Positions 1-17,759 are shown, counted from the stretch's first letter. The stretch is 64,000 nt of DNA from Candidatus Alloenteromonas pullicola (GCA_018714785.1 DVMV01000018.1:10540-74539); one strand, 5' to 3'. Translations and numbers: made by a program. The notes: generated by a model from the letters alone, not told the origin.

Positions 1-91
1 CGCCGCCGGTGCTGCCGAAGTTCCCCTTTGGCCCGCAGGATGCGAGCGTGGTGGCGAGCAAGGCGCCCGCGAGGATGATTCTTCTGTTCAT
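1..91 (-). CDS. Lipoprotein, 5' end only (N-terminus MNRRIILAGALLATTLASCGPKGNFGSTGG...); runs off the window start
   Basis: Reverse-strand ATG at 91-89 preceded by GGAGG; signal peptide plus LASC lipobox; ATG overlaps the TGA of the upstream GH65 gene (ATGA). Confidence 0.5.
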   Translation of the reverse strand, partial: MNRRIILAGALLATTLASCGPKGNFGSTGG

Positions 92-2349
92 ATTGTTTCC
101 TCCTTTTTGTAAATATGAATTTGCTTGTCGTAGTTAAGGGCCAGCCGCGTGGCCTCGCCGGTTTCCGATCCGTTCAGGCGGTAGCGGAACGGGCTCTTGG
201 AGCTGAGGATTATCCTTTTCCCGCGGTAATCCACGGAGATTGGGGCGCCATGGTAGACGAAGGTCAGCTTGAACCGGCTCAATAGATAAACGAGCTTCGG
301 GGATATCTCAAGGAACCCCTCGCCAGCCTTGGCCCCCAATATCCCCCTGACGAAGAGGAAGAAGCCCGAGGCCAAGCTGCCGGCGTGCACCCCCTGCCCG
401 GCGTTGCCCTGCACGTCGTCGATGTCGATGCGCAGCGAGGCGTTTAGGTTATCCTCGAAGACCTTGAGGTCGCCGTTGTCGATGGCGGATAGGGCGTGGA
501 CACAGTATGTCAGGCTGCTGCTGGCCTCGCAGCGGGCGAGGTAGTATTCGTAGTTCTGCCGGTAGTTCTTTTCGAAGCCGAGGTTGAGGTAGGAATAAAG
601 GAGCAGCACATCGGGCTGCTTTATCACCTGGGAGAGGTGGTATAGCCCGCTTTGCTTCATCTGGAAGGAGGAGGCCTTCTTGTCCGATTTCCCCTCGACG
701 ATGAGCTCTTTGCTTAGGTTCAGGTATCCGTCGAACTGCGGCAGTATCCCGTCGACGAACTCCGGCTGGTAGAGCCTGGAGGCGAAGTCGGTTAGCTCCT
801 CCTCGCTTAGCTTGGCCAGACGGTATCCTAGCTCGCCCTTGAGACGGATGAACTCCTTCAAGACGAAGCCCAGCGTGACGTTGGTGTAGGCGTCGTCGTC
901 GACGTAGTCGTGGTGCTCGTCGGTCCCGGTGACGCACTTCAGCCGGTAATATGTCCCGTCGAAAGTCGACCGGGAGATGAAGTACTCGATGATCTCCTCG
1001 ATCATCGGGAAGCCGCATTCGAGGAGGAAGTCGCGGTCAAGGGTGTGGTAATAGTAGTTGAGGACCGCATAGGCCACGTCGCCGTTGATGTGGATCTGCA
1101 GGAAAGGGTGCTTGGCGTAGATCCAGACCTGCTCGTCGCCGTTGACGCTCGAGCAGAAGGCGTACTTCGCGCCCTTATACCCGGCGGCCTTGGCGTTTTC
1201 CTCGGAAGCCTTGAGCCGGTTGTAGCGGTATAGCAGCAGGTTCTTGCACTCCTTTGGGTAGGTGAGGAGGAAGAACGGCATCTGGTAGATCTCGCAATCC
1301 CACCAGACGAATTGGTTGTACTTCTCCGCCGTCAGGTTCTTCGCGCTCAGCGAGTGGACGTGGTCGTGGCGGTTGAATCCGATCAGCGTCTGGTAGTTGG
1401 CGTATCGAAGCAAGGTGTCGAGGACGTCGTTGCCGTATACCTTCACGTCGACCTTCTTGAACGCCTTCCTATAGGCCCTGAGGTGTGATTCGTAAAGCGA
1501 GGACCAGACCGGGCGCAGCGCCTTCGCGGCGGAGCGCTGGATGTTGCGGCCGTCTATGTTGGCGTAGAACGCCACGGCCTTCCTCATCTGCCCTTCCCGC
1601 CCGATCAGCTTGAACGACTCAAAGCTGCCATAGCATCCGCCACGGCCTTCGGCTGAGGCGAATCCCTGGGCTTCGTTCTTGTATAGGTAGAGCCCCTTCA
1701 TGCGGTACTTATCCCCATACTTAACCCGGATGCATTTCTTGCCATCGAGCGTCGAGAAGCAGGCCCCTCCGATCTTATGCTGGCCATTGGTCTTGCAAAG
1801 CAGGTCGATCCCGCTTTCGACGAAGATCGGGAGGTCGTGGTTGAGCTTCTTTATGGTCAGGCTCTGCAGGAACAGGTGGTCGCAGGCGAAGCTGCATACC
1901 CGGTGGAAGGTCAATGAGGTGGCGTTCCCTTGCTCATCCTCCACCACTATCTCGCGGGAGAGGCCACCGTTATTGAAGTCCAGGTAGCGGCGGAACGACT
2001 TCAGCTTGCAGTCCCACATCCTGAACGGCTTCCCGCCGATGTAGATGCGGAAGGCGGTTATGTCGCCGATGTTTATGCAGCTGTCCTCGTATTCGAACTC
2101 CTTCAGCTTCTGCTCGTCGAAGTAAAACTTCTTCATGTAGGAGTTGTCGCTGACGGTCTCGGGGATCTCGACTATCTTGTCGAACACCCCGCGGACGTAA
2201 GTCCCCTGGACGAAGACGTCGCCGAATTCCTCGAAGCTGCCGCGGATGCCGAAATACCCATTGCCGATGCCGAATATCGAGGCGTCCTTCATCTCGTCGG
2301 AGATGATGTATTCGTCTTCTAGGAATTTGTCTTTCAGGTAGTGGTACAT
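88..2349 (-). CDS. Glycoside hydrolase family 65 disaccharide phosphorylase (kojibiose/nigerose/maltose/trehalose phosphorylase type)
   Basis: 753 aa; N-terminal GNGYFGIRGSFEE motif and overall length/architecture typical of GH65; beta-phosphoglucomutase present in the same island. Confidence 0.75.
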   Translation of the reverse strand: MYHYLKDKFLEDEYIISDEMKDASIFGIGNGYFGIRGSFEEFGDVFVQGTYVRGVFDKIVEIPETVSDNSYMKKFYFDEQKLKEFEYEDSCINIGDITAFRIYIGGKPFRMWDCKLKSFRRYLDFNNGGLSREIVVEDEQGNATSLTFHRVCSFACDHLFLQSLTIKKLNHDLPIFVESGIDLLCKTNGQHKIGGACFSTLDGKKCIRVKYGDKYRMKGLYLYKNEAQGFASAEGRGGCYGSFESFKLIGREGQMRKAVAFYANIDGRNIQRSAAKALRPVWSSLYESHLRAYRKAFKKVDVKVYGNDVLDTLLRYANYQTLIGFNRHDHVHSLSAKNLTAEKYNQFVWWDCEIYQMPFFLLTYPKECKNLLLYRYNRLKASEENAKAAGYKGAKYAFCSSVNGDEQVWIYAKHPFLQIHINGDVAYAVLNYYYHTLDRDFLLECGFPMIEEIIEYFISRSTFDGTYYRLKCVTGTDEHHDYVDDDAYTNVTLGFVLKEFIRLKGELGYRLAKLSEEELTDFASRLYQPEFVDGILPQFDGYLNLSKELIVEGKSDKKASSFQMKQSGLYHLSQVIKQPDVLLLYSYLNLGFEKNYRQNYEYYLARCEASSSLTYCVHALSAIDNGDLKVFEDNLNASLRIDIDDVQGNAGQGVHAGSLASGFFLFVRGILGAKAGEGFLEISPKLVYLLSRFKLTFVYHGAPISVDYRGKRIILSSKSPFRYRLNGSETGEATRLALNYDKQIHIYKKEETI

Positions 2350-3515
2350 CAGAAGTCCTCGTAAAGGGAAGCCAGTATGCTGCTAACGTATCCCCGGACC
2401 AGGAAGTCGCTGGGGTGGTTGATGTTGTTGGCCAGGATGTCGACGCTGCGCTTGTGGCCAAGCAGGTATTGCGAATAGGAGGTCATGTCCATCAAGGCGA
2501 CCCCGTCGTAGCTCTCGGATAGATCCTTGAGGGGCTGTAGGTAGTTCTCCTGCCCGGCGCTTTGGGTGCTCTCGGGATTGGCCAGGATGGTGCTGACGAG
2601 CACGATCTCGGCATCGGGGTTCCTGGCCTGGATGCTGGCGACCATGAACTCGATGTTGTAGATGAAGTCGGCGGGCTTGACGTTCCACGAGCCGTCGTTC
2701 ATCCCGAACCCTATGAACACCAGGTCGGGGCTGTAGTCGTTGACGTTGACGTCCACGTTGGTCCGGCCCCATTCGGAGAGCGTGCCGCCCTTCGAGGTGT
2801 TGAAGAACTCGATCCCGTCGTAGCCGTAAAGCTGCTTCAGCATCTTGACGCTCGCGGTCGGGAAATCGTCGAGGTAAGGCGGGATGACCAGCTTCGAGCT
2901 GGCGTTGCACCCGGTCATGATCGAATCCCCATAGAAGCCGATGGTCAGGCGCTCCCTGTTGCGGAGCTTCTCGATCGTCTTGGGCAGGTCGGCCCCAAGA
3001 TACCCCGGCTTATACCCATCCCAGGAACCGGCGTGGCGGTAGGTGACGTTGAGCTGATGCATCACGATCCCGGGGCCCTCGGTGAACATTATCGGGTGTT
3101 CTTTGCCCTGATAGGTGTCGATGGCGTATTCGGAAGGCAGGTTCTCGCCGCGAAGGTTCTCCTGCGTGAAGTAAGGCAGCGATGAGCCCTCGGCGCGGAT
3201 TATCCGGTTCCCCTCGATCCGGTATTCGCTCGGGTCGATCTCCTTCTCGGTAGTGTAGTCGCGGACCGATATCACGTCGGTCGGCTCGAAAAGCAGGTTT
3301 CCGTATATCTGCCCGTCTTCCTCGACCAGGCAGACGGTCTCGTTGTAGATGGTCTGGTCTTCCCAGAATTTCTGGTATTTCTGCTCGTCGCCGTACATGT
3401 AAACGCCCTCCTGGGTTGAGGAATCGGCGCCGCTTCCCGATCCGGTCGGGGCGCAGGCGGCCAGCGAAGCCGCCGCTAGCAATGGCAATAAGGCCGCTTT
3501 TGCGCTTTTATTCAT
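2349..3515 (-). CDS. Secreted lipoprotein, SGNH/GDSL-family hydrolase with extra N-terminal domain
   Basis: Signal peptide with LAAC lipobox; GDSIMTGCN (GDS block) and GFGMNDG (GxND block) motifs. Confidence 0.7.
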   Translation of the reverse strand: MNKSAKAALLPLLAAASLAACAPTGSGSGADSSTQEGVYMYGDEQKYQKFWEDQTIYNETVCLVEEDGQIYGNLLFEPTDVISVRDYTTEKEIDPSEYRIEGNRIIRAEGSSLPYFTQENLRGENLPSEYAIDTYQGKEHPIMFTEGPGIVMHQLNVTYRHAGSWDGYKPGYLGADLPKTIEKLRNRERLTIGFYGDSIMTGCNASSKLVIPPYLDDFPTASVKMLKQLYGYDGIEFFNTSKGGTLSEWGRTNVDVNVNDYSPDLVFIGFGMNDGSWNVKPADFIYNIEFMVASIQARNPDAEIVLVSTILANPESTQSAGQENYLQPLKDLSESYDGVALMDMTSYSQYLLGHKRSVDILANNINHPSDFLVRGYVSSILASLYEDF

Positions 3516-4368
3516 TTTCGCCCTCCTCCATAAGGTTCAGCCTGTCGATCCTTATCTTCCCGCTTATGGCGCCGGTGGCCTCGAAGCCGATATTGAGGCT
3601 TATGAGGCCTAGGTCGCGCCTGTCGGTGAATGGCATGTAGCCGAGTTCTTGCGCCTTGGCGAAGCCATCGTAGATGAACTTCAAGACATCAAGCTTGATG
3701 CGGGCTTTGTCGCCAACCCCGAACCGGGGCGGGAGGTAGATGTGCGGGTCGATGCAGTAGATGAGCTTCCCGGTGGCATCCTCCTTGCCAACGTCCTCCG
3801 AGCAATAAGGCTTGGGGTAATCAAGCCGCGGGGCATCCATGAAGGGCAGCCCGAACCAGTAGAAATCTTGGTAGCTCTTGGAATTCGGGTTGCGGTCGCC
3901 TACTGCGAGGTATAAGGAGGCCTGCAGGGTGTGGAGGTCGTTCCTGTCCTCCCCCATCAGCGACTCCAGCGCGAGTATCTCGACGTCTAGCTCCACCACG
4001 AGGGACTTCATCCCACTTAAGGGGCGATAGCCGAATTCCTGCTCGACCAATAGGTGCGGCCAAGGCTCATTCGGCTGCCTCGGATGGTCGTATTCGTCGT
4101 GGCAATCGACGCCAAGCGTCAGCCGGCCCTGAGGATCCCTTATGACTTCCTTGCAGCGGTTGGCTATCGAGTACCCGCCCTCGAAGACCCTGACGTCGCG
4201 TTCGTGGTATAGGTCGGCCTTGGTGAAGTACTCGGCCAGCCGATAGGTCGGCGCCTCGAGGTTGGAGAAGGGCAGGCTCATCAGGCCGGTGTGGTTGTCT
4301 TCCAGCAGGCTGCGGCGCAATATCGAGAAACCCTTGGAGAAAGTCGGGTCTTTTATCAGGTTAATCAT
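3508..4368 (-). CDS. Uncharacterised protein, paralogue 1 of a tandem triad (cytoplasmic form)
   Basis: 286 aa; shares WPHLLVEQEF, FYWFGLPF, KLIYC motifs with the two downstream paralogues; no signal peptide. Confidence 0.6.
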   Translation of the reverse strand: MINLIKDPTFSKGFSILRRSLLEDNHTGLMSLPFSNLEAPTYRLAEYFTKADLYHERDVRVFEGGYSIANRCKEVIRDPQGRLTLGVDCHDEYDHPRQPNEPWPHLLVEQEFGYRPLSGMKSLVVELDVEILALESLMGEDRNDLHTLQASLYLAVGDRNPNSKSYQDFYWFGLPFMDAPRLDYPKPYCSEDVGKEDATGKLIYCIDPHIYLPPRFGVGDKARIKLDVLKFIYDGFAKAQELGYMPFTDRRDLGLISLNIGFEATGAISGKIRIDRLNLMEEGENE

Positions 4369-5263
4369 TCAGGACTCCTTTCAGCCGGATGTTGGATATC
4401 TCGCTGTCGACCGCGAACGATCCGGGCAGCTCCCAGCCGATGTTCATGTAGTTGACCACCAGGTTCCTCGAGGTGGCGAATATCTTGTTCTTCACCGCGT
4501 ATTTGACCGCGCGCCTTATGGCCGGGAGGATGTCGAGCGATATTTCGTACTCCTTCCCGAACTTCAATGGGGCGTCGGACAGGTAATCCTTGGAGTTCAG
4601 GCAATATATCAGGGCCTTGGTCGAGCCGGCGAAGTCCCCGTCGTATTGGATGTGCTTGGCGATGGATGGGTAGCGGTAATCGTAGATCGGGATGCCGAAC
4701 CAGATGAAGTTCCCGCCCAGGCCTTCCTTCGATTTGCCATTCCCCTCGCGGATGGTAAGGTACCATATGAACTGGGCGGTGTGCTTGTTCGGGTCGAAGG
4801 AATCGCCGTCCAGGCTCTTGACGTCGTTTATCCTGACCTTCACATTGGCGAATAAGGCGCTTAGGTCCCTTATCCTGACGCTTTCGACGAAGTCCTGCTC
4901 GAGCAGGAAGTGCGACCAGGGGGCGCTTGGGTCGGTTCTAGGGCCGCCAAGCCGCTGCTTGTACTCGGCTTGGGAATCGAGGACGAAGCGGAACCGGCCC
5001 TCGTTGGTGTTTATCAGGCAGCGCCTGGATTGGTTGAAGTACTCGTATACCCCTTCCGATTTCTTGCTGAAGGAGGCGTCCTTGAAGTCGTATGGGGTCC
5101 ACCACTGCGACATGATCCAGAGCACGTCGTTGACCTTGATGGCCTCGCCGCCGTAATCGAGGTAACTGAACACCTTCCGCTGGTCGGTGACCGGGTTGGG
5201 CCCTTGGAGGAAGAAGCCGCTTTTAAAGCACTCGTCGGTGAGCAAATCCTTGAAGTAAGACAT
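4361..5263 (-). CDS. Uncharacterised protein, paralogue 2 of triad (cytoplasmic form)
   Basis: ORF track gives 4361..5809 with a GC-rich junk N-terminus; real start taken as internal ATG at 5263 (MSYFKDLL...) preceded by GGTGAGGTG; motifs WSHFLLEQDF, FIWFGIPIYDYR, NIGWELPGSF. Confidence 0.6.
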   Translation of the reverse strand: MSYFKDLLTDECFKSGFFLQGPNPVTDQRKVFSYLDYGGEAIKVNDVLWIMSQWWTPYDFKDASFSKKSEGVYEYFNQSRRCLINTNEGRFRFVLDSQAEYKQRLGGPRTDPSAPWSHFLLEQDFVESVRIRDLSALFANVKVRINDVKSLDGDSFDPNKHTAQFIWYLTIREGNGKSKEGLGGNFIWFGIPIYDYRYPSIAKHIQYDGDFAGSTKALIYCLNSKDYLSDAPLKFGKEYEISLDILPAIRRAVKYAVKNKIFATSRNLVVNYMNIGWELPGSFAVDSEISNIRLKGVLND

Positions 5264-5265
5264 AT

Positions 5266-6315
5266 TCACCTCACCGCCAGCAGCGATAGCCTGCTCAAGG
5301 TCGATTCGATGTTGAACGAGCCGGGCAGCTCCCAGCCGGCGTTCATATAGTCGATGTAGCACTTGTTCCAATCCCATCCGGCAAGCGGGGGGTTGGCGGT
5401 GGCGGTCGAGCCGGTTATCAGCGCATCCTGCAGGAAGGGGATGAGGTCGACGTCGACCGTGTACTTCTTCCCCACCTCGACCCCGTTGGGAAGGAAGTCG
5501 TTCTGGCCCATGCGGTAGATCAGCGAATTGGTGGCGCCCTCGAACCCCTGGTCGATGTTGTAGGAAGGCTTTCCCTCGTTGCCGCGGTTGTCGAACAGCG
5601 GGACGCCGAACCAGAAGAAATTGTCGAAGTCGAGGTTGCGGATGGTGAAGTACATGATGAACTGGGCGGCGTGCATCGATGGGTTGTAGTGCTCCTGGTC
5701 GAACAGCGTCACGTCCTTTATCTGGAAGTCGAAGCTCAGGCGCAACGAACTCAGCTCGGACAGCAGCACGCTCTGCGAGAAGTTCTGCTCGATGAGGAAA
5801 TGCGACCACGTCTGGCTGGAGCTGGTCCTCGACCCGCCGAATCTTTCCTGATACTCAAGCCAGGAATTGAGCTGCATGCCCAGCTCGCCCTTATCGGTAT
5901 TGACCTTCAAGGTCCGGGATTCGTTCTGATAGATGTGGTATCCGTCGGAATAAGAATATGGGGCGTATTGGAAATCGAATGGGGTCCACCACTGCGCCAT
6001 CTGCCAGATCGTCCGGTCGCGCGGCTCGGCTTTCCCTTCGTAATCAAGATCCTTCACCACATGGGCATCGGTGGTCGAAGTCGACTTAAGCAGCAGCCCG
6101 GTCCGGAAATTGGCGTCGTCGAATAGCTGAACCTCACTGGCGACAGGGGACGATTGGGTAGAATCCTCTTTGGAGGATGATGAGGCGGGCTGACTGTCCT
6201 CGGTGCTTTCCCCGCTTTGGCTTGACGATGATGGCTGCCCGCCGCAAGAGGCGAGGGGCAAAGCGAGTAAGGCGAGCGCGCAATTAAGACGGTGATGCAT
6301 GGTAGACCTCCGCAC
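5266..6315 (-). CDS. Uncharacterised protein, paralogue 3 of triad (secreted lipoprotein form with Ser/Thr-rich linker)
   Basis: Signal peptide plus LASCGG lipobox, S/T-rich linker, then a domain ~45% identical by eye to paralogue 2 (WSHFLIEQNF, FFWFGVPLFDNR, NAGWELPGSF); GGAGG RBS. Confidence 0.65.
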   Translation of the reverse strand: MRRSTMHHRLNCALALLALPLASCGGQPSSSSQSGESTEDSQPASSSSKEDSTQSSPVASEVQLFDDANFRTGLLLKSTSTTDAHVVKDLDYEGKAEPRDRTIWQMAQWWTPFDFQYAPYSYSDGYHIYQNESRTLKVNTDKGELGMQLNSWLEYQERFGGSRTSSSQTWSHFLIEQNFSQSVLLSELSSLRLSFDFQIKDVTLFDQEHYNPSMHAAQFIMYFTIRNLDFDNFFWFGVPLFDNRGNEGKPSYNIDQGFEGATNSLIYRMGQNDFLPNGVEVGKKYTVDVDLIPFLQDALITGSTATANPPLAGWDWNKCYIDYMNAGWELPGSFNIESTLSRLSLLAVR

Positions 6316-6508
6316 CCACTAGGGGAACTGAGACGATTGTATTACCTTCTTAAACCAACCCCGCCCATTAGCAAAGAAGTTGGAAAATAATCTTAATTTG
6401 CGCACAAGTCGCTCACGAACACGCGCATTTGTTCATCGTTTTTTGCCGTTTTGCGTACAAAAGCAGGCCATTGATGCGCATTGAAGGTCACGTTTCAGGC
6501 ATAATTTC

Positions 6509-6536
6509 TTTGTAAAACCCGGGAAAACCTTATAAT
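6509..6536 (+). promoter_or_regulatory. Putative sigma-70-type promoter TTTGTA-N16-TATAAT for deoR; -10 ends 7 nt before the ATG (leaderless transcript predicted)
   Basis: Hexamers read directly; no Shine-Dalgarno before ATG 6544; upstream region also carries four TGCGCA-type repeats (6408-6480) that could be DeoR operators. Confidence 0.35.
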
Positions 6537-6543
6537 TAACGCG

Positions 6544-7305
6544 ATGTACGACTTGGAAAGACAGAATGAGATTTACGAGATTCTCAAGCAAAAGAAATCA
6601 ATCTCGGTTGACAAACTGACGAAGCTGCTTTACGTCTCGCAGTCCACCATCAGGCGCGACCTGACCGAGATGGAGAAGCAGGGCCTCGTGAAGAGAACCT
6701 ATGGCGGCGTGGTCCTCCAGGAATCACCCAATGAGGAGACCAGCCTTTTGCTCCGCGAGACAATCAACGTGAGGGAAAAGAAGAAGATCGCGGAGATCGC
6801 CTCCCGCCTTTTGAAGGACAACCTATCGGTCTTCATCGACTCCTCGTCTACCTGCACTTACCTAGTGCCGTATATGAAGAACTTCAAGAACCTAAACATC
6901 GTGACGAACGGGCTTCGAATCGGGCTTTTGCTTTCCGAGCAGACCTCTTGCCAGATCTTCTTGGCCAGCGGCTACATCCATTCGAGGTCCAACTCGATAT
7001 TAGGGAATCTGACCGTCAAGACGCTTGAGCGCCTCCACTGCGATCTTTCGATCATATCCTGCAGCGGGCTCGATCTTGGCTTCGGCCTAAGCGAAACGAC
7101 GATCGACCAGTCGGAGGTCAAGATCGCCATGGCCGAGAACTCCAATCGGATCATCCTGCTGGCCGACCACTCCAAATTCGACGACGCCAAGCTGTTCAAA
7201 TCGATCCCGCTTTCCAAGATAGACTGCATAGTCACCGATCAGAGGCCGAGCGAGGAATACGTCGAATTCTGCGCCAACAACGGGATTGAGCTTTTATATC
7301 AATAG
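6544..7305 (+). CDS. DeoR/GlpR-family transcriptional regulator
   Basis: N-terminal HTH (SISVDKLTKLLYVSQSTIRRDL) plus C-terminal sugar-phosphate-binding domain; 253 aa. Confidence 0.85.
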   Translation: MYDLERQNEIYEILKQKKSISVDKLTKLLYVSQSTIRRDLTEMEKQGLVKRTYGGVVLQESPNEETSLLLRETINVREKKKIAEIASRLLKDNLSVFIDSSSTCTYLVPYMKNFKNLNIVTNGLRIGLLLSEQTSCQIFLASGYIHSRSNSILGNLTVKTLERLHCDLSIISCSGLDLGFGLSETTIDQSEVKIAMAENSNRIILLADHSKFDDAKLFKSIPLSKIDCIVTDQRPSEEYVEFCANNGIELLYQ

Positions 7306-7395: not shown

Positions 7396-9930
7396 TTATT
7401 TCTTGCGCTTCTTGGAGATGAAGTAGGCTCCGACGCCGATGGCCGCGACGACCGCGACGGAACCGACCGCTATCCCCGCTATCGCGCCAGCGCCGAGTCC
7501 TCCGCCGTTGTCACCGGGCTTATCCGGGTTGGTGGTTCCGGAATCGCTGGTGTCGGTATCGGGCTCCTCGACGTCGGCCTTGACGATGTTCAGCGTGATC
7601 TCGCTGCTGCCTTTGGCGCTCTCGAGCTTGAGCACGTGCTCGCCGGCCGACAGGGTGTTGAGGTAGCTGGCCTTGAGGGTCAATGTGGTGTTGCGCTGGT
7701 AGGTGTAGTGCTCGTTGGCGGTTAGCTGAGTCCCGTCGACGTAGAACTTCAGCCCGGTCTGCAGCTTCGGGTCAACCCCGATTATGAGGTTGTTGGTCCC
7801 GCCCAGGGTGAAGTCGAAGGATTCGGCTGAAGCGGTCGGCGCGTAGGATATATCGGCGTTGAGCAGCGAATCCGCGGTCGCGTTATTCCCATTAATCTTA
7901 TTCAAGGTCATGGACATCGGGTTGGTGTAATCGCCGTTCTGGGAGCCTATTCCGAAGTACCCTTTCCCGTTGGGGAAGGCGCCGAGGACGTCGAATTCCC
8001 TGACCAACGGGGTCTCGTATTTCGCCCCATTGAAGGAGAACTCGAGGTAGTTCTCGACGATGCCGCTGGTGTTCACCTGGCGCAGCGACATCTCGAACTT
8101 GATGGCGCCAGATTTCTGGATGACGAGCTGGGTCTGGGACAATTGCCCGTCGAAGAAGCGGTTGCAGGTTCCGTCGATCAGGTAGGGCTCGACGCTGGCC
8201 TGGGTTTCGTTGAGATCCCTGATCAGGAACACGAATCCCTTGAAGTTCTGTATCGATTCGTCATCGGCGGAGGAGAAGAAAGTGGGCTCCGCCATTATCG
8301 AAATGGCATACTGTCCGAAGTTGTCGATAGTGTAATCGACGCTTAGATCGATGAGATCCAACGCCTCGCGGGTATACAGCAGCCCGCTGCCTTGATCGTC
8401 GGCGGAGGAGATGCTGCCCCAGGCGGTCAGGCCGATGGAATCCTCGGTTTCGACGACGCGGACGCTCTCACCGCTGATGAACCCGGAATCCTCGGAGACG
8501 GACCCAAATTTATTGGAGAAGGCCTCCCTGGCGGCGTTCAGGCTTTCCTCCAAGGCGGCAACGGCCGATTCGTCCATGTATCCGCGGAAGGTGGTCGAGA
8601 TGGTGTTGTAGGCGATCTCGGCTTCCCTGACCTCCTCGAGGGTGGTGGCGTTGTTCATCTGCTCGATGACGCCGTTGACTATGTCGCTGTAGCGGCTGCC
8701 GGCGGCCTGCTGGACTTCGGCGTAATCCTCATTGAAGGCGGCGTTGATGGCGTCGACGTCGGTCTGTTCCTCGCCGGTCAAGGTCAATCCCGCGATGGTC
8801 TGATTGATGGTGTTCACCATGTCGACCTTGGATAGGGCGGAAAGCAAGGTGGCATCGTCGGAGAGATCGGCGGTGAGGTCTCCGAGCTGGTTGACGTAGT
8901 AGCGCAGCAGCTCGATGTAGGTGGCGTTCCCGAACTTCTCCACCGCAGCGGACTGAAGGGCTTCTACCGCCGGATCGAAGGTCCTCCTTAGGTAGACCTC
9001 GTCGTAATCGTAGAGGGAGGAGAGGTCGATGTCCTCGGTCAGGCTATAGGCGTCGATGAAGTCCTGAACGGAATTAAGCGTGACCTTGGAGACGGTGTCG
9101 ACGAATACCTCGACGTTGGATTTGGCCTCGTAATACGGACCGGTCTCCTGGTTGTAATAGGCCATGTCGTCGGCATCCATGCAGTGGTTGACGATGAAAT
9201 GCCGCTCGCCACTTTGATATCCGGAGCAGAAGTTGACGCAGAACTCCTCGGAAAGATTCTTGAAAAGCGTATCGACTGGGAAGGTGGCCTTGTAATCGTT
9301 GGCGTAGATCTCGACGCTGTCCCCGGTTACGGTCCAACCGATGTTGAGGATGTTGTTCTCGGCGGTGACGACGACCCCGCTGTAGGAATCAAGCCACGTC
9401 TCGCTCTTGTCGCCCCAGCCGTCTATCGTCTCGTTGTGCCCTGCCCCGGCCCCGGTGTTGAGGCAGACCATGTAGTCGTTGGGCCGCTCCTCGAAGGAGT
9501 ACTTGACGATGTCCATGCAAAGCCCTTGGGCGGCCTCCCCGTTGTATATTCCTTGGGGGCCAAATGAAAGTCCCAGGCAGTCGCCGCGGGTGAAATCGGT
9601 CAGGTCGAGCGAGACCTCAAACCTGGCGCGGCCAAACGTCTTGGGGCCATAATCGCATCGATTGCCCCAACCGGATGTGCCGGTAACGGCCACGCGGGTG
9701 TCATCCAACCTCTTGAATCCAAAATTCGTGGAGTTCCAAATTGAGCGCATGCTGCTCGCTTCATCGACCGTTCCGATGGCTGGCCATTCGATCGTCTCTC
9801 CTGGCAAGTTCAAAGGCGAAGCGATATCAATCTCAAGATTTGATTCAGCGCTTGCCCGGGTGTTGCATTCGCCAGAGAGCAAGGCAAAAGAACCAAGCAA
9901 AACCGGCAAAATAACGAATGATTTCTTCAT
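7396..9930 (-). CDS. Large surface protein: signal peptide, beta-sandwich-like regions, C-terminal TM helix plus KKRKK stop-transfer anchor
   Basis: 844 aa; N-terminal hydrophobic signal; C-terminus GAGAIAGIAVGSVAVVAAIGVGAYFISKKRKK; GGAGG RBS. Confidence 0.6.
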   Translation of the reverse strand: MKKSFVILPVLLGSFALLSGECNTRASAESNLEIDIASPLNLPGETIEWPAIGTVDEASSMRSIWNSTNFGFKRLDDTRVAVTGTSGWGNRCDYGPKTFGRARFEVSLDLTDFTRGDCLGLSFGPQGIYNGEAAQGLCMDIVKYSFEERPNDYMVCLNTGAGAGHNETIDGWGDKSETWLDSYSGVVVTAENNILNIGWTVTGDSVEIYANDYKATFPVDTLFKNLSEEFCVNFCSGYQSGERHFIVNHCMDADDMAYYNQETGPYYEAKSNVEVFVDTVSKVTLNSVQDFIDAYSLTEDIDLSSLYDYDEVYLRRTFDPAVEALQSAAVEKFGNATYIELLRYYVNQLGDLTADLSDDATLLSALSKVDMVNTINQTIAGLTLTGEEQTDVDAINAAFNEDYAEVQQAAGSRYSDIVNGVIEQMNNATTLEEVREAEIAYNTISTTFRGYMDESAVAALEESLNAAREAFSNKFGSVSEDSGFISGESVRVVETEDSIGLTAWGSISSADDQGSGLLYTREALDLIDLSVDYTIDNFGQYAISIMAEPTFFSSADDESIQNFKGFVFLIRDLNETQASVEPYLIDGTCNRFFDGQLSQTQLVIQKSGAIKFEMSLRQVNTSGIVENYLEFSFNGAKYETPLVREFDVLGAFPNGKGYFGIGSQNGDYTNPMSMTLNKINGNNATADSLLNADISYAPTASAESFDFTLGGTNNLIIGVDPKLQTGLKFYVDGTQLTANEHYTYQRNTTLTLKASYLNTLSAGEHVLKLESAKGSSEITLNIVKADVEEPDTDTSDSGTTNPDKPGDNGGGLGAGAIAGIAVGSVAVVAAIGVGAYFISKKRKK

Positions 9931-10067: not shown

Positions 10068-10703
10068 TTAAATTAGGCGGCTTATGTCGGTGATTGAGCT
10101 TATTCGAATTTCGGCAAGCTCAGGCGATATTTCGCTGCCGATTGCCACCGGAATGAAGCCCCCGCGCTTGGCGGCGATGATCCCCGCTTCGCCGTCCTCG
10201 ACCACTATGCAGTCCTTCGGTTTCAGACCGATCATGCTTGCCGCCTTTACGAAAACCTCCGGGTCGGGTTTGGAGTTCGAGATCATCGTCCCGTCGCAAA
10301 TGACGTCGAACATCCCTAACATCCCGGTCTTCCCCAGGATTAGCTTGGCGTTCTTCGACGAGCTGCCGACCGCCAGCTTGATTCCCCGGCCGCGGAACTC
10401 CTCCAAAGCCGCCCGCGTTTTGGGGTCGATGCTATCCGGGGAGAGCCGGTCGTTCAAGAAGGCGACGTAGATGTCGTTTTTGGTTTTGAGGATCCGCTGC
10501 TTCCGCTGCTCGGGGATGCTTGCCCCATTCTCCTTCAAGACAATCTCGAGGCTGTCCCGGCGGCTGACCCCGCGGAGCTTGTTGTTCATCTCCCTATCGA
10601 AGCGAAGTCCTTCTTCGTTGAAGACTTCCTTCCAAGCCAGATAATGGTATTCATCGGTGAATACCAGTACCCCATCCAAATCGAACACAATGCCTTTTAT
10701 CAT
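10068..10703 (-). CDS. pgmB: Beta-phosphoglucomutase (HAD superfamily)
   Basis: Start re-called at internal ATG (MIKGIVFDLDGVLVFTDEYH = HAD motif I DxDG at canonical N-terminal position); KLAVGSSS, EDGEAGI motifs. Confidence 0.8.
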   Translation of the reverse strand: MIKGIVFDLDGVLVFTDEYHYLAWKEVFNEEGLRFDREMNNKLRGVSRRDSLEIVLKENGASIPEQRKQRILKTKNDIYVAFLNDRLSPDSIDPKTRAALEEFRGRGIKLAVGSSSKNAKLILGKTGMLGMFDVICDGTMISNSKPDPEVFVKAASMIGLKPKDCIVVEDGEAGIIAAKRGGFIPVAIGSEISPELAEIRISSITDISRLI

Positions 10704-10883: not shown

Positions 10884-11852
10884 CTATCTTTCGACCAGTT
10901 CCACGGGGAAGACCTTGTGGAAAAGCTGGGTCGGGCATCTTGCCCCGGTATGCATGGCGATCGAGGTGTCGACCACTTCCTTGACGAGCTCGTCGTCGTC
11001 CGCCCCGATGCTGGAGACGGGGTCGTAGAGATCGACGTATTGCGACACGTTGTCGTACCCCATCAGGTATATGCCGCCCAAAGAGCCCTGCTCCTTCAGA
11101 ACGCGACGAAGCAAGATGGCGACGTAATCGGAATGGCAGAAGACGAAATCGTACCCGTTGTCCTTGATTAGCTTGGCGGCGTCGGCAAGGGTCTTCCCGT
11201 CATAGTCGAACCGCAGGTAGTCGACGCTGCCGCCGATGACCGGGGAGAGGAAGTCGTTGAAGCCGCTGTAGCGCCGCTTGGTTGTCTCAGACGGCGAGTT
11301 GGTCAGGTATATGGCTTTCTTGAATCCCTTGGAAAGGAAGAACTTCCCCGCCTTCTGCCCGCCGGAATAGTCATCGGTGATGGCGTAGTTGACCGATTCC
11401 GACGTCGGCTTGATGCCGATGACGAACAAAGGTATCGAATTGTCAGCGAATGTCTTGGCCACCTCATCGGTCGGCTGGACCAGAGAAATGGCCATGGAGC
11501 ACTTGTTGGTGAAGAAGGCCGACAGGTCGCTCATACGCAAGTCATAGCCATTCGACAATGTAATAACACCCGTATAGCCTTCCCCATCAAGAAGACGGAT
11601 GATTTTGTACACCATTATCGCGAAATAAGGGTTGTAAAGATCGTTAACGAACACCGCGACGTTCTTCGTGGTACCGGTTTTAAGCGAAACCGCCAAGGAG
11701 TTTTTCACATAGCCGAGTTCCCGCGCTTTTTGGCGGACTTTATCCTTGGTCGATTCGGAAATCTCGGGCGAGTCGCGCAGCGCCTTGCTCACCGCGTCAA
11801 CCGTAATGTTGAGCGATGACGCTATGTCCTTCATCGATACCTTGCCGTTCAT
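10884..11852 (-). CDS. LacI-family transcriptional regulator
   Basis: N-terminal HTH (VSMKDIASSLNITVDAVSKAL) plus periplasmic-binding-like sugar domain. Confidence 0.8.
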   Translation of the reverse strand: MNGKVSMKDIASSLNITVDAVSKALRDSPEISESTKDKVRQKARELGYVKNSLAVSLKTGTTKNVAVFVNDLYNPYFAIMVYKIIRLLDGEGYTGVITLSNGYDLRMSDLSAFFTNKCSMAISLVQPTDEVAKTFADNSIPLFVIGIKPTSESVNYAITDDYSGGQKAGKFFLSKGFKKAIYLTNSPSETTKRRYSGFNDFLSPVIGGSVDYLRFDYDGKTLADAAKLIKDNGYDFVFCHSDYVAILLRRVLKEQGSLGGIYLMGYDNVSQYVDLYDPVSSIGADDDELVKEVVDTSIAMHTGARCPTQLFHKVFPVELVER

Positions 11853-12772
11853 CTTATCTCCAGGAAGTTGTCCAACACCGCCTCGGCGAACAGGTTGCCG
11901 AGCTTTACCATTGAGCTTGAATCGTAGTGATATATATCGGGCGATCCAGGGGGTTCCGCGTTATATTTTAACCCAGCGGAAATAGTATCAATATAAACAT
12001 TTTTGTCATCCTCCAAACTCAAGGCCTGCTTGGCTTGGTTGATTTCCACCCTATGGGTCCAGGCCAAGGAGTCGGAGATGGCGGCGTCGACGAAGCCGAT
12101 TCCGCTAGGATCGCCGTAGTAGGCGAATTCCTTCCTCAGGTCGGCGACAAACGCCCTCTCAAGGTCTAGGTAATCATCATAATAGGCCGAGGTCGAGTCG
12201 TCCTCGCCCTGCATCCAGCAGATGGCTTTTATCTCGGGATAGTATCCCATCCCCTCCAAAGTCCCCATCGCTTGGTTTATGTACTCAACCGCGAGTCCAT
12301 AAAGAGAGCCGGTCATGCCGGAGCTTGGGCTCCGCCAAGCGGAGTGCAGCGAAGTGGCCCCTTGGGCGAACTTAACCAGGAACACCGGATATTTTAGGTC
12401 AGCCCTCGATAGCGTCTCGGCCATCCCGATCTCGGGGCCGAACTGGGTCGTGGAGGTGCCTTGCCCCAATTTCACCGGAACGAAGGTCCCGTTGCTGGTG
12501 TTCTGGGCCACGGTGCAGGCATAGCTGATCAACACGTCGTCATAGCCATCCACATATTCCTGCGTCTTCTCCTGGCCCATGGTGTTGAGCAGGTATTGGC
12601 TATGGGTGTGCCCTTCCATGTTGGATTGGCCAAGCATCACGATCACCTGGGCCTTGTTCGATAGCGGATCAATAGATGATGTGGTTTCGACAGCCGATGA
12701 GGAGCCCACGGTTGGGGCGCAGCCGCCGCTAACTAGGGCGAGCAGCATGGCCAATGGAGCGATTCTTTTCAT
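11849..12772 (-). CDS. Lipoprotein carbohydrate O-acetylesterase (SASA/DUF303 sialate-O-acetylesterase-like fold)
   Basis: Start re-called at MKRIAPLAMLLALVSGGCAP (lipobox) with AAAGGTGG RBS; VMLGQSNMEG catalytic motif. Confidence 0.65.
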   Translation of the reverse strand: MKRIAPLAMLLALVSGGCAPTVGSSSAVETTSSIDPLSNKAQVIVMLGQSNMEGHTHSQYLLNTMGQEKTQEYVDGYDDVLISYACTVAQNTSNGTFVPVKLGQGTSTTQFGPEIGMAETLSRADLKYPVFLVKFAQGATSLHSAWRSPSSGMTGSLYGLAVEYINQAMGTLEGMGYYPEIKAICWMQGEDDSTSAYYDDYLDLERAFVADLRKEFAYYGDPSGIGFVDAAISDSLAWTHRVEINQAKQALSLEDDKNVYIDTISAGLKYNAEPPGSPDIYHYDSSSMVKLGNLFAEAVLDNFLEIR

Positions 12773-13611
12773 ACAAGCACCACCTTTCCGGTATCTAGCG
12801 AGATCGATTTTATTATTGGAAACTCGTGTATTCCGCCCTCTTGATGGGCGATGAAGCGCCAACGGCCATCGAAGTCGCGGAAGCACATACCATGCCCCGC
12901 GTTCTTAAGGAACGGCCGACGGGCGCTTTGGATGTAATTCGGGCAATGGAACTTCCCAGCCGGATAAGACGCCCCGGTGACGTAGTTGCCCCGCTCGTCG
13001 TAACTCGACCATATCAGGGCGTTATGCCCGTCGATGCTCAGGCAGAATGGGCCGTCGGTGACGATGATCCCCCCACTGCCCCAGGCTGGGCTTTTGGCCC
13101 ATTTCGAATCCGAGGCTTTGAATAGCACCTTGGGTTCGCCATCAGGCCCCGAGAGGCTCTCCTTAAGCTTAACCGAGCATATCTCACCAACCTTGGTCTG
13201 CAGCCATTCGTGGCAGAAGATGAGGTAAGGGGACCCATCTTCCTCGACCAGGGTTCCATCCAAGCACTCCCAGCCTTTGGGGGTGAGCTGCTCGCCATAT
13301 GGGGCGAACTGCCCAAGCGGGTTATCGGCTATCAAGGCCCGGCAATGCCGCTCGCCCTTCTCGGTCTTGAACGAGGCGATCATCAGGTAGCCGATGTCGA
13401 TCTTATAGACCTCAGGGGCCCAGTAATCGCGGTCCGGCTCAAAGTTCTTCGGCCTGGAAAACACCTCAAAAGGCCCGCAAAAATCTATCAGGTCGGAGGA
13501 AACATAGGCTTTGAAGGACATTCCCCCGGTCGTGCCATAAAGATAATATTTCCCGCTTGCCGGATCGGCGAGGATATAAGGATCGCGTATGCTTATCTCG
13601 TCAAGATGCAT
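12769..13611 (-). CDS. Cytoplasmic glycoside hydrolase family 43
   Basis: Start re-called at MHLDEISIRDPYILADPASGKYYLYGT (GH43 N-terminal catalytic Asp block) with AAAGGGGAAG RBS; ATGA overlap with downstream gene. Confidence 0.7.
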   Translation of the reverse strand: MHLDEISIRDPYILADPASGKYYLYGTTGGMSFKAYVSSDLIDFCGPFEVFSRPKNFEPDRDYWAPEVYKIDIGYLMIASFKTEKGERHCRALIADNPLGQFAPYGEQLTPKGWECLDGTLVEEDGSPYLIFCHEWLQTKVGEICSVKLKESLSGPDGEPKVLFKASDSKWAKSPAWGSGGIIVTDGPFCLSIDGHNALIWSSYDERGNYVTGASYPAGKFHCPNYIQSARRPFLKNAGHGMCFRDFDGRWRFIAHQEGGIHEFPIIKSISLDTGKVVLV

Positions 13612-14008
13612 GGTAACTTCCCCTTTCGATGTATTCTTTGCATTCGGCGTAGCCGCAATAGTAGCCCGCAACCGCCCCATCTTCGATCTGCAGCAATAGC
13701 GGCGCATAGGCGAAGCTGATCTTCGAGACGGAGGTCGCGCCAAGTGATTCGCTTTTCGCCTTCTCGGCGTCGGAGGAATAGGCGAAGTAGTCGTATACGG
13801 CGAACTCGTCGATGTCGACCATGTAGAACCCCTCGGTTGGAATCTCCACGTCCTTCAGCAGCGCGGCGCATTGGTCGCAGTAGGATGAGTGGAGCAGGAC
13901 CGAGTAGTCGCCTTCCTGGCGGAAGAGGTCTTCCACGCCGATGGAGTTGCCTTTCGCGGCGGCGCAGGCGCATAGCAGCAACGCCACCGACGCAACGGCC
14001 GCCCTCAT
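13601..14008 (-). CDS. Small lipoprotein with CxxC motif (possible thioredoxin-like fold)
   Basis: Start at MRAAVASVALLLCACAAA (lipobox LLCAC) with GGAGGAGG RBS; SSYCDQCAALL motif; ATGA overlap with GH36 stop. Confidence 0.45.
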   Translation of the reverse strand: MRAAVASVALLLCACAAAKGNSIGVEDLFRQEGDYSVLLHSSYCDQCAALLKDVEIPTEGFYMVDIDEFAVYDYFAYSSDAEKAKSESLGATSVSKISFAYAPLLLQIEDGAVAGYYCGYAECKEYIERGSYHAS

Positions 14009-16113: not shown

Positions 16114-16127
16114 ATTGCTTCCCTTAA

Positions 16128-16158
16128 ATGGGGGCGGGGGAGGCACCCGCCCCCGGAT
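16128..16158 (-). promoter_or_regulatory. Very stable G/C hairpin (GGGGGCGGG-loop-CCCGCCCCC) between lipoprotein stop and GH36 RBS; no U-tract
   Basis: Read directly; 9-bp all-G/C stem, 7-nt loop, on the mRNA strand about 16 nt upstream of the GH36 ATG. Confidence 0.3.
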
Positions 16159-16162
16159 AGCC

Positions 16163-17743: not shown

Positions 17744-17759
17744 TTGCGTTTCCTTTCGT

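Follow-up and report, generated by a model that had tools for sequence, protein, structure and literature searches.

Tandem paralogues of an unannotated protein family with a predicted GH12-like fold, and their possible role in the use of an acylated glucosyl/rhamnosyl glycan

Gene content of the locus

The window analysed here is a stretch of 64,000 nucleotides from Candidatus Alloenteromonas pullicola. Three consecutive minus-strand genes (c1, c2 and c3) lie between the gene of a DeoR regulator on one side and those of an SGNH esterase and a GH65 protein on the other (Table 1). Their products are paralogues by BLASTP, with 37% identity between c2 and c3 (E 2e-59), 26% between c1 and c2 (E 5e-20) and 24% between c1 and c3 (E 2e-16). 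Such a tandem triad had been proposed in a sequence-only reading of this DNA, and the neighbours named there (GH65, SGNH lipoprotein, DeoR and beta-phosphoglucomutase) were all found. The shared motifs that it quoted occur in the copies, but c1 reads WPHLLVEQEF and NIGFEATGA and fits WxHFLxEQxF and NxGWELPGSF only in part. Similarly, the three genes do lie at 3508-6315, but the start of c3 is most likely the ATG at 6300, because GGAGG is found 7 nt upstream, and not the GTG at 6315. A mechanical ORF of c2 reaching 5809 was rejected as an over-extension.

Table 1. Features of the window discussed in the text.
Feature	Position	Strand	Evidence or remark
GH65 alpha-glucoside phosphorylase, uncharacterised subfamily	88..2349	-	Pfam GH65 N-terminal and middle domains
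SGNH/GDSL esterase lipoprotein	2349..3515	-	Pfam Lipase_GDSL_2, E 5.8e-17
c1, most divergent cytoplasmic paralogue, 286 aa	3508..4368	-	BLASTP, key-residue comparison
c2, cytoplasmic paralogue, 300 aa, starts MSYFKDL	4361..5263	-	Protein used for the structure model
c3, secreted lipoprotein paralogue, 344 aa	5266..6300	-	ORF, lipobox, RBS; family HMM E 2e-120
Intergenic control region of the operon and the divergent DeoR gene	6301..6543		Direct repeat
DeoR-family regulator, divergent	6544..7305	+	Pfam HTH_DeoR and DeoRC
844-aa surface protein	7396..9930	-	Travels with the system
Beta-phosphoglucomutase	10068..10703	-	NCBIfam TIGR01990, 210 bits (cut-off 189)

As had also been claimed, c3 alone carries a lipoprotein signal, with the lipobox LPLAS/C followed by a Ser/Thr-rich linker; no signal peptide was found in c1 or c2. 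The gene ends overlap by 8 nt (c2/c1), 8 nt (c1/SGNH) and 1 nt (SGNH/GH65), and we therefore treat these genes as one operon and describe the paralogues as translationally coupled. In the control region, a direct repeat (TTTGCGCACAA at 6397-6407 and TTTGCGTACAA at 6450-6460) is a possible operator, and the 11-mer is also present in the equivalent intergenic region of loci L006 and L091. The 844-aa protein begins with a signal peptide, followed by two beta-sandwiches (the first one ConA-like) on either side of a helical stalk, then by an Ig-like CBM_X2 domain, and ends in a C-terminal membrane anchor.

GH65 phosphorylases are defined by a catalytic acid Glu and a phosphate site made of Lys, His and Ser-Ser (PMC8626586). 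The best PDB match of the GH65 protein in the window is 3wiq (CsKP, E 6e-59), and alignment to this structure shows that AK, the DE of TDEHH, SSL and G-V-H-A are kept, so that the protein retains its catalytic Glu as well as the phosphate site. In loop 3 it has F-C-S-S, which agrees neither with kojibiose phosphorylase nor with SVSWRQ, a singleton motif reported in PMC8537180, and the aglycone is therefore only putative. A homologue search returned 427 proteins, none of them characterised, with no named homologue in the best 120 matches.

Genomic context in related loci

The operon is more complete in syntenic genomes, where a fourth paralogue is encoded at a position that falls past the left edge of the window. 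The full version holds four paralogues, the SGNH and GH65 genes and an ABC importer, followed by genes for rhamnulokinase, rhamnose isomerase and an aldolase, and a beta-phosphoglucomutase gene lies close by; in L091 the order is c3-c2-c1-SGNH-GH65-SBP-permease-permease-c4-FGGY-RhaA-aldolase-ATPase. The FGGY kinase resembles rhamnulokinase (E 1e-85). Moreover, RhaB, RhaA and RhaD occur together in one Acholeplasma-family locus, and GH78 and GH106 rhamnosidases are found in other loci of the family. A glycan route that includes an esterase and a GH65 phosphorylase, as suggested from the sequence alone, is retained, but it is not simply one for an alpha-glucoside or for kojibiose or nigerose, because a complete set of genes for L-rhamnose catabolism closes the operon and GH78/GH106 are present elsewhere.

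The SGNH esterase is the most constant partner of the family. An SGNH gene is located no more than 8 kb from a family member in 32/76 loci, including Bacteroidota PULs; an ABC binding protein is found at this distance in 33/76 loci and GH65 in 25/76. The beta-phosphoglucomutase gene is present in nine loci, and the DeoR gene is conserved beside the operon in 14. Minimal Bacteroidota PULs are made of sigma/anti-sigma factors, SusC, SusD, a TIG-domain protein, a family member and an SGNH esterase; in these loci no protein other than the family member is a candidate glycanase.

An unannotated family found in several phyla

The proteins c1-c3 belong to an undescribed and unannotated family. Searches of Pfam and NCBIfam with the paralogues gave no match at E<=1, a Pfam scan of 51 members one by one gave none at E<=10, and a sequence search of the PDB also returned nothing. 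No confident match to a characterised GH, PL or CE family emerged from the profile searches, and the view that the family is unrecognised stands. It comprises 1,068 clusters at 50% identity, distributed over several phyla. A signal peptide is lacking in 66 of 170 copies, and many loci combine secreted with cytoplasmic members, in agreement with the intracellular/extracellular isozyme pattern noted beforehand. The most divergent copy, c1, has 1:1 orthologues in loci L006, L009, L010 and L011 (46-56% identity). In some members, a catalytic domain (GH16 or an esterase) is attached to the family domain, with SGNH, BD-FAE and alpha/beta-hydrolase proteins among the fused or neighbouring esterases.

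Predicted fold and relation to GH12

The AF2 model of c2 (pLDDT 94.7) is a beta-sandwich, as had been suggested, and the top 27 Foldseek matches of this model are all GH12 proteins (best E 5e-10). The modelled fold is a beta-jelly roll nearest to GH12 endoglucanases, and its putative substrate cleft, on the concave side, corresponds to that of GH12 structures. At the profile level, the Pfam scan of the 51 members gave no GH12 match, and hhalign against a profile of 12 GH12 sequences gave a probability of 0.9% and an E of 0.061. The sole segment aligned by hhalign places N274-x-G276-x-E278 and the preceding helix onto the GH12 acid/base strand, Q-x-G-x-E200. This strand comes after helix 246-258, as expected for the GH12 acid/base; E278 is equated with E200 from the motif and the topology of the strand rather than from a superposition of coordinates.

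The other half of the GH12 active site differs. In our alignment of GH12, the nucleophile motif E-[IL]-M-[ILV]-W is invariant (E116, M118 and W120), as is D99, and neither this motif (E-L-M-I-W) nor the Asp of the neighbouring strand was found in the family. Its counterpart by topology, strand 186-195, has the pattern [FY]-x-W-F-G-x-P-x-[YF]-D-x-R, with no Glu at the cleft-facing positions 186, 188, 190, 192, 194 and 196. Its invariant D195 is a possible functional substitute.

Conserved residues and a candidate active site

Conservation was computed over 368 members, in copy-2 numbering. The most constant positions are E278 and G276 (359/361 each), D195 (357/361), W116 (355/359), W188 (354/361), D208 (351/360), N274 (350/361), Q164 (348/361) and H118 (339/359); Y168, R197 and Y220 are near-invariant as well. 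H118, E122, Q164, D195, R197, D208, N274, G276 and E278 are all retained in c3. The equivalents of E122 and E278 are kept in c1, where other cleft positions are changed (Y272 to S, Y/F194 to M and W277 to F). We derived the geometry of the active site from covariation (about 286 effective sequences), which places W116/H118/L120/E122, Y272/N274/G276/E278, Q164/Y168 and W188/G190/P192/Y194 on the same side of a group of four neighbouring strands, an arrangement that is a signature of a sugar cleft.

E122, the Glu of HFLxEQ, had been pointed out as a hint of a catalytic or sugar-binding function. It is not the invariant carboxylate of the family (73% conserved, against 359/361 for E278), but the pattern of its loss suggests that it matters for function. 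It is kept in 30/31 single-copy loci, and 42/43 multi-copy loci have at least one copy that bears it (72/74 loci overall). The copies that have lost it are mostly secreted (33/40; Fisher p 0.002). Where Q, N, S or G takes its place, the copy is usually an extra secreted paralogue with an otherwise kept cleft; such paralogues are probably inactive glycan-binding derivatives. Catalysis would probably use E278 together with a second carboxylate, for which E122 is preferred, with D195, D208 and E100 as further possible candidates.

Possible function

We give about even odds to the explanation that the paralogues form a new glycan-cleaving family serving a pathway for an acylated glycan of alpha-glucosyl and L-rhamnosyl units, in which they would most likely be glycoside hydrolases and provide the glycan-cleaving step of the operon. 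Outside the cell, the c3 and SGNH esterase lipoproteins would deacylate and fragment the O-acylated glycan, which the 844-aa surface protein may keep in place. The oligosaccharides would enter through the ABC importer and be trimmed in the cytoplasm by c2 and c1 to a disaccharide of the alpha-glucosyl-rhamnose type. The GH65 phosphorylase would split it into beta-glucose-1-phosphate, for beta-phosphoglucomutase, and L-rhamnose, for rhamnulokinase, isomerase and aldolase, with the operon under the control of the DeoR regulator. A more specific proposal, which we make only tentatively, is that of a new CAZyme family in which the GH-C jelly roll and the GH12 acid/base strand are kept and the nucleophile arrangement is replaced by another catalytic partner, and whose members may be endo- or exo-acting glycanases of the alpha-L-rhamnosidase type, within a cross-phylum pathway for glycans of the O-acylated glucosyl-rhamnan type. 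If true, its targets could, for instance, be exopolysaccharides or cell-wall polysaccharides of other bacteria that are rich in rhamnose, and a previously unknown pathway, present in gut Bacilli/Acholeplasmataceae-like bacteria, Clostridia, Bacteroidota PULs, Verrucomicrobiota and Planctomycetota, would combine lipoprotein and cytoplasmic isozymes with naturally inactivated binding paralogues.

Jelly-roll folds also serve lectins, CBMs and lyases, which counts against this reading. It is conceivable, if rather unlikely, that the paralogues are non-catalytic carbohydrate-binding proteins (lectins, SGBPs or jelly rolls of the CBM type) that serve to present the glycan to other enzymes or to escort it: many copies are lipoproteins, the fusions to GH16 and esterase domains resemble CBM architectures, the GH12 nucleophile motif is missing and copies lacking E122 are plausibly binding-only. 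Secreted copies of the latter kind may indeed fit the class of CBMs or surface glycan-binding proteins. For the family as a whole, however, E278, H118 and D/E residues are near-invariant, E122 is present in at least one copy at essentially every locus, and the signal-less copies are kept as 1:1 orthologues in a catabolic operon, which would be odd for a lectin. We favour an enzyme because these cytoplasmic orthologues persist across genomes about 50% identical, and because the minimal Bacteroidota PULs, which a binding role would leave without a glycanase, offer no other candidate.

A non-hydrolytic cleavage of a uronate-containing rhamnoglycan, by a PL7-like lyase (His, Tyr, Gln, Arg) or a transglycosylase, appears improbable. 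PL7 enzymes employ the same types of residues as H118, Q164, Y168, R197 and Y220, and the family lacks a canonical Glu/Glu pair arranged as in GH12. However, no uronate genes (GH88/GH105, KduI/KduD, Uxa/Uxu) are among the recurrent neighbours, the downstream enzymes handle glucose and rhamnose only, and the structural matches to GH12 are clearly stronger than those to lyases.

We consider it more doubtful still that the family performs another sugar or acyl chemistry, as an esterase, acyl-migration enzyme, epimerase or isomerase that cleaves no chain. Its frequent neighbours and fusion partners are esterases and its catalytic residues are only candidate ones, but the SGNH protein already provides esterase activity in cis, the conserved positions show no evident Ser/His/Asp triad, the top structural matches include no known esterase or epimerase with such a fold, and the pathway would otherwise have no enzyme for rhamnosidic or inter-unit bonds. 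Finally, the kinship to YesU/DUF1961-type concanavalin-like proteins of rhamnogalacturonan-I use that had been tentatively raised is very hard to maintain: RG-I loci, such as the yes cluster of B. subtilis, likewise have SGNH esterases and rhamnose catabolism, but YesU ranks 51st among the structural matches, far under GH12, no Pfam DUF1961 match was obtained even at E<=10, the neighbourhood holds no genes for an RG lyase, GH28, GH105 or galacturonate use, and the GH65 phosphorylase and beta-phosphoglucomutase imply an alpha-glucoside instead.

Comparison with known systems

The closest structural counterparts of the glycanase that we favour are GH12 enzymes such as T. maritima Cel12A (3amh) and P. 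furiosus EGPf (3vgi), endoglucanases and xyloglucanases of clan GH-C. They share with the family the succession of a single helix, a [Q/N]-x-G-x-E strand and the last strand, as well as aromatic residues lining the concave sheet. They differ in that the family is about 80 residues longer (9-14% identity), lacks the E-x-M-x-W nucleophile strand and the conserved GH12 Asp, has its own invariant set (W116, H118, Q164, W188, D195, R197 and D208) and includes cytoplasmic members in a context of rhamnose and alpha-glucoside, not beta-glucan, catabolism. PL7 and GH16, also jelly-roll glycanases with a concave sheet, score below GH12; the ExDxxE motif of the latter was not found in that form in the family, the R/Q/H/Y motif of the former seems to be absent in that form too, and the recurrent neighbours suggest no uronate context. 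YesU/DUF1961 of B. subtilis (PDB 1oq1) has a jelly-roll or galectin-like fold too and lies in a rhamnose-related operon with SGNH esterases. The copies with a changed E122 and an otherwise kept cleft, a pattern that is classic for enzymes converted into binders, may parallel inactive enzyme-derived binders such as chitinase-like lectins and PUL surface glycan-binding proteins.

For the pathway, the nearest system is that of Cphy_1019, a GH65 enzyme that phosphorolyses 3-O-alpha-glucosyl-L-rhamnose (PMC11442529), in which a GH65 phosphorylase, beta-phosphoglucomutase and L-rhamnose catabolism are combined as in the pathway proposed here. We found no description in the literature of upstream enzymes producing a disaccharide of the Glc-alpha-Rha type. 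The GH65 protein of the window belongs to a separate, uncharacterised subfamily, and its link to rhamnose is drawn from gene context and not from sequence comparison. With Cphy_1019, a Glc-alpha-Rha disaccharide has a precedent as final intermediate.

The paralogous genes and their operon

The three consecutive minus-strand genes c1, c2 and c3 are true paralogues, as the sequence-only reading had proposed, and the BLASTP E-values of the three pairs place this paralogy far beyond chance (c1/c2, 26% identity, E 5e-20; c2/c3, 37%, 2e-59; c1/c3, 24%, 2e-16). The motif blocks described in that reading are present in the alignment of the three copies, but c1 fits two of them only partly. It had also named c3 as the only lipoprotein copy with a Ser/Thr linker and a GH65, an SGNH lipoprotein, a DeoR regulator and a beta-phosphoglucomutase as neighbours, in agreement with the features listed below.

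Positions of the paralogues, their neighbours and the adjoining sugar locus in the window
Feature	Position	Strand	Remarks
GH65	88-2349		neighbour of paralogues
SGNH lipoprotein	2349-3515		neighbour of paralogues
c1	3508-4368	-	286 aa, no signal sequence
c2	4361-5263	-	300 aa, starts MSYFKDL, no signal sequence
c3	5266-6300/6315	-	lipobox LPLAS|C, Ser/Thr-rich linker
Direct repeats TTTGCG[CT]ACAA	6397-6407, 6450-6460		53 nt apart
DeoR	6544-7305		neighbour of paralogues
844-aa surface protein	7396-9930	-	no informative Pfam match
Beta-phosphoglucomutase	10068-10703		TIGR01990, score exceeds cut-off
LacI regulator	within 10884-19595	-	adjoining sugar locus
SASA-type acetylesterase	11849-12886	-	adjoining sugar locus
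GH43	12769-13743	-	adjoining sugar locus
GH36 alpha-galactosidase-like	14005-16146	-	adjoining sugar locus
Two Big_2 surface proteins	16163-19595	-	adjoining sugar locus
Two further GH43 genes	24419-26750	-	adjoining sugar locus

The c2 ORF called mechanically to 5809 is an over-extension, and the start of c3 is most likely the ATG at 6300, with GGAGG located 7 nt upstream. The genes form one operon, since stop and start codons overlap (by 8 nt at c2/c1 and c1/SGNH, and by 1 nt at SGNH/GH65). The minus strand carries nearly all genes of the 64-kb window, including those of a separate sugar locus that adjoins the operon and also has ABC components.

The sequence-only reading saw three copies and no rhamnose genes because the window ends inside the operon; tblastn found no rhamnose genes elsewhere in the window. 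Beyond the GH65 gene, the operon continues with an ABC binding protein, two permeases, a fourth paralogue (the lipoprotein c4, with Q at position 122 in c2 numbering) and a rhamnulokinase-like FGGY kinase, and ends with L-rhamnose isomerase, a class II aldolase and a MalK-like ATPase. This part was seen in three related loci (L091:12268-21659, L005:15176-20900 and L001:15203-20903), of which L005, a contig from an uncultured-bacterium MAG, is ~96% identical to the window. The terminal FGGY kinase of the same-species operon matches rhamnulokinases at E 1e-85 versus 4e-24 for fuculokinase. In the syntenic contig L091, whose GH65 is 67% identical to that of the window, the order is beta-phosphoglucomutase, surface protein, DeoR (divergent), c3, c2, c1, SGNH, GH65, binding protein, permease, permease, c4, FGGY kinase, RhaA, aldolase and ABC ATPase.

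The direct repeats lie in the divergent DeoR/operon control region, and the 11-mer is also found in the equivalent intergenic region of two syntenic genomes, L006 (8853-8863) and L091 (5939-5949); they may represent the DeoR operator. The 844-aa surface protein is made of two ConA-like sandwiches, a helical stalk of ~220 residues, an Ig-like CBM_X2 domain and a C-terminal membrane anchor. Relatives were found in 17 loci, and a second type, of 862 aa, in 17 further loci (e.g., L069:12154-14742).

Extent and annotation of the family

No match to c1, c2 or c3 was obtained in Pfam or NCBIfam at E<=1, and scanning 51 members singly at E<=10 gave noise only. Profiles of 3 and 51 sequences retrieved nothing meaningful from the PDB sequences, the sole match, a phage protein at E=1, being noise. 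The family was thus rightly called unrecognised, as judged by Pfam, NCBIfam and PDB, and it may overlap with a very recent CAZy family. A tblastn search with c2 in 50,697 phage records gave no match, and thus no sign of a relative among phage depolymerases. Literature on glucosyl-rhamnose phosphorylases and endo-rhamnanases, on GH12-like and new jelly-roll GH families, and on gut-bacterial degradation of rhamnose-rich cell-wall polysaccharide yielded no description of the family.

A word-indexed search returned 54 relatives, all "hypothetical" and all lacking Pfam domains. Exhaustive HMM searching of 1.84 billion representatives then extended the family to about 1,000 unannotated clusters at 50% identity (1,068 at E<=1e-3, 549 at E<=1e-30). 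Cluster look-ups gave only "hypothetical protein" and one UniRef name, "Xanthan lyase" (P0134, WP_188086126.1 of Chitinophaga qingshengii, L046:9872-12517), which neither Pfam nor any other result supports. This protein has 879 aa, with the family domain at its N-terminus; three others (P0055, P0056 and P0064) each contain two stretches matching the family profile. The 844-aa and 862-aa surface proteins, the TIG-domain protein of Bacteroidota loci and the SGNH protein were checked as hidden members and do not belong to the family.

Scanning one genome per species confirmed 168 loci. Carriers are uncultured gut Bacilli ("Mollicutes", Acholeplasmataceae), Clostridia (Christensenellaceae, Pumilibacter) and Cohnella; those in the Bacteroidota are Parapedobacter, Sphingobacterium, Chitinophaga, Niabella, Parabacteroides and Prevotella, and others are found in Verrucomicrobiota and Planctomycetota. 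Paracholeplasma vituli, Cohnella fermenti, Pumilibacter muris and species of Parapedobacter and Chitinophaga are carriers available in culture. In six metagenomic proteins (P0096, P0141, P0173, P0166, P0167 and P0130), the family domain is fused to partners that include GH16, BD-FAE or alpha/beta-hydrolase esterases, type I dockerin, a T9SS sorting domain and a metallo-beta-lactamase domain. These fusions mark the family as an extracellular carbohydrate-active module.

Predicted fold and conserved residues

The AlphaFold2 model of c2, built from a 51-sequence alignment, predicts about 18 strands and two helices (pLDDT 94.7, pTM 0.92), and the beta-sandwich anticipated in the sequence-only reading is borne out. 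The distant relation to YesU/DUF1961 tentatively suggested alongside it is not: the first 27 Foldseek matches among all PDB chains to April 2026 are GH12 proteins (best E 5e-10, TM 0.46-0.53), and no structure closer than GH12 was found. Judged from this model, the nearest known architecture is clan GH-C.

For the sequence comparison, Cel12A of T. reesei, verified against 1h8v, was combined with ten bacterial GH12 genes carried on plasmids into a GH12 profile, in which D99, E116, M118, W120, G198 and E200 are among the invariant columns. The hhalign match of the family to this profile was not significant (probability 0.9%, E 0.061). Its only segment is nevertheless informative, as it places the family's single long helix and Y-M-N274-I-G276-W-E278 on the GH12 helix and Q-F-G198-T-E200, the acid/base strand.

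Conservation was counted over 368 non-identical members. E278 and G276 are each kept in 359/361 and N274 in 350/361, and near-invariance extends to D195 (357/361), W116 (355/359), W188 (354/361), D208 (351/360), Q164 (348/361), R197 (347/361) and H118 (339/359). Strand pairings were derived by mean-field DCA from a modest alignment (349 sequences, Meff 286). Strand 268-279 (B4) is antiparallel with 117-130 (W116-E278, H118-G276, L120-N274, E122-Y272), and its other side pairs with 164-173, which in turn pairs with 186-195. One face then carries W116/H118/L120/E122, Y272/N274/G276/E278, Q164/Y168 and W188/G190/P192/Y194, predicted to be a typical sugar cleft, while D195 and R197 face away from it by parity. 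By DCA, the strand topologically matching the GH12 nucleophile strand has no carboxylate at any cleft-facing position.

The Glu of HFLxEQ (E122), put forward in the sequence-only reading as possibly catalytic or sugar-binding, is Glu in only 261 of about 358 members, and the invariant carboxylate is E278 instead. A simple GH12-like pair of E122 and E278 was rejected, since DCA places E122 across from Y272, which is six residues away from E278 on its strand; the two Glu residues may still face each other across a bent cleft. The substitutions of E122 across paralogues are nevertheless not random. E122 is kept in 30/31 single-copy loci, and 42/43 multi-copy loci have at least one E122 copy, with 31 also carrying at least one copy without Glu. 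Copies lacking E122 are mostly secreted (33/40, Fisher p 0.002), and several of the seven non-secreted ones are start-codon artefacts or conservative E-to-D changes. Gut-Bacilli operons encode the fourth paralogue, a lipoprotein, behind the permeases; its residue at this position is always Q or N, and c1-c3 have E. Such a pattern would be expected if catalysis required E122 and the additional surface copies had turned binding-only; it is support, though not proof, for a role of E122 alongside E278. The division into c1, c2, c3 and c4 is old and maintained, since each of the four has a 1:1 orthologue even where genomes share only about 50% protein identity. Changes at cleft positions of c1 (Y272S, Y194M/I and W277F) suggest a different subsite specificity.

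A purely carbohydrate-binding family would agree with the fold, the fusions and the absent GH12 nucleophile, but we consider it unlikely; the conservation of cytoplasmic copies and the near-invariant carboxylates speak against it. Lyase or other non-hydrolytic cleavage would suit the conserved H, Q, Y and R residues but comes without any uronate context and is improbable. Weaker still are non-cleaving chemistry, for which we see little chance, and a YesU-like protein, which the GH12 matches leave very hard to credit.

Gene neighbourhoods

ORFs were called in 76 related loci and neighbours within 8 kb were clustered. One, two, three and four tandem copies occur in 31, 19, 15 and 14 loci, respectively. 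The most frequent neighbours are the two ABC permeases (35 and 33 of 76 loci), the ABC binding protein (33), the SGNH esterase (32) and GH65 (25), followed by the 829-aa-type and 862-aa-type surface proteins (17 each), DeoR and GntR/LacI regulators (14 each), SusD (13), SusC (12), beta-phosphoglucomutase (9) and a GFO/IDH/MocA oxidoreductase (9). A secreted calcineurin-like phosphoesterase, with an N-terminal region resembling that of the surface proteins, recurs in a few loci (L075:4690-6796, and cluster c21 in L019 and L070), a hint of possible phosphodiester-linked decorations on the target glycan.

In Sphingobacteriaceae and Chitinophagaceae, a minimal PUL (L039, L042, L045, L047, L051, L053 and L080) consists of ECF sigma and anti-sigma factors, SusC and SusD, together with a 320-aa lipoprotein that has an IPT/TIG domain, the family member and an SGNH esterase. 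No plausible glycanase candidate other than the family member is encoded there. Acholeplasmataceae-type loci carry, directly upstream of the family genes, rhamnulokinase (TIGR02627, E 1e-111), RhaA (Pfam, E 4e-186) and rhamnulose-1-phosphate aldolase (NF002963, exceeding the cut-off), and GH78 or GH106 alpha-L-rhamnosidases are added in Cohnella, Bacteroidales and Clostridia loci. The esterase and GH65 context on which the sequence-only reading based its pathway is retained, but the recurring rhamnose genes indicate that it is a rhamnose pathway.

Proposed pathway

Gene content, gene order and co-occurrence were observed, as were the fold, the conservation and the localisation signals; from these we infer what the family catalyses, on which substrate, and what each copy does, as follows. 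Outside the cell, the SGNH lipoprotein would strip O-acyl groups and lipoprotein c3 would fragment the glycan, presumably by cutting an inter-unit bond that may be rhamnosidic, since nothing else in the operon could break bonds of this kind. Capture of the glycan would fall to the 844-aa surface protein and to c4, the Q122 copy, and the ABC system would take up the oligosaccharides. Cytoplasmic c2 and c1 would reduce these to an alpha-glucosyl-rhamnose-type disaccharide, which GH65 would phosphorolyse to beta-G1P, destined for beta-phosphoglucomutase, and L-rhamnose, for RhaB, RhaA and RhaD. Speculatively, the substrates could be rhamnose-rich cell-wall polysaccharides or exopolysaccharides with alpha-glucose and acetyl groups.

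Sugar-utilisation loci of uncultured gut Bacilli, Clostridia and Bacteroidota have this family at their core, and the pathway is coherent, cross-phylum and experimentally tractable. If the family is the missing glycanase, it would be a new family of the CAZy type, combining a GH12-like fold with catalytic residues other than those of GH12, and would account for the substrate supply to a large uncharacterised GH65 subfamily. Catabolism of rhamnose/glucose glycans, which may amount to scavenging of bacterial cell-wall or exopolysaccharides, would become directly testable. The presumably active and apparently inactivated paralogues offer a natural series for studying the change from enzyme to binding protein.

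Comparison with known systems

B. subtilis RhaR is an analogue for a DeoR-family regulator that senses a rhamnose-derived metabolite, and by this analogy the window DeoR probably does the same. The family has the fold and the acid/base motif in common with GH12, but lacks the profile match and the nucleophile motif, and is therefore not filed under GH12. It is best described as jelly-roll glycanase-like, with a fold related to clan GH-C and conserved residues of its own.

The window GH65 falls in an uncharacterised clade, as none of its 427 homologues at E<1e-30 is specifically named, and its best PDB relative is a kojibiose phosphorylase (E 6e-59). Aligned to the kojibiose phosphorylase CsKP (3wiq), it retains the catalytic Glu as well as the Lys/His/Ser-Ser phosphate site by which phosphorylases of GH65 are told apart from hydrolases (PMC8626586), but loop 3 differs (F398-C-S-S401, with deletions at CsKP positions 402 and 416). 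Of the six positions that De Beul et al. relate to specificity, 392, 394, 402 and 416 are C, S and two loop deletions in the window enzyme, which fits no reported motif. Finally, Cphy_1019, a GH65 enzyme specific for 3-O-alpha-glucosyl-L-rhamnose (PMC11442529), provides a precedent for a Glc-alpha-Rha end-intermediate.
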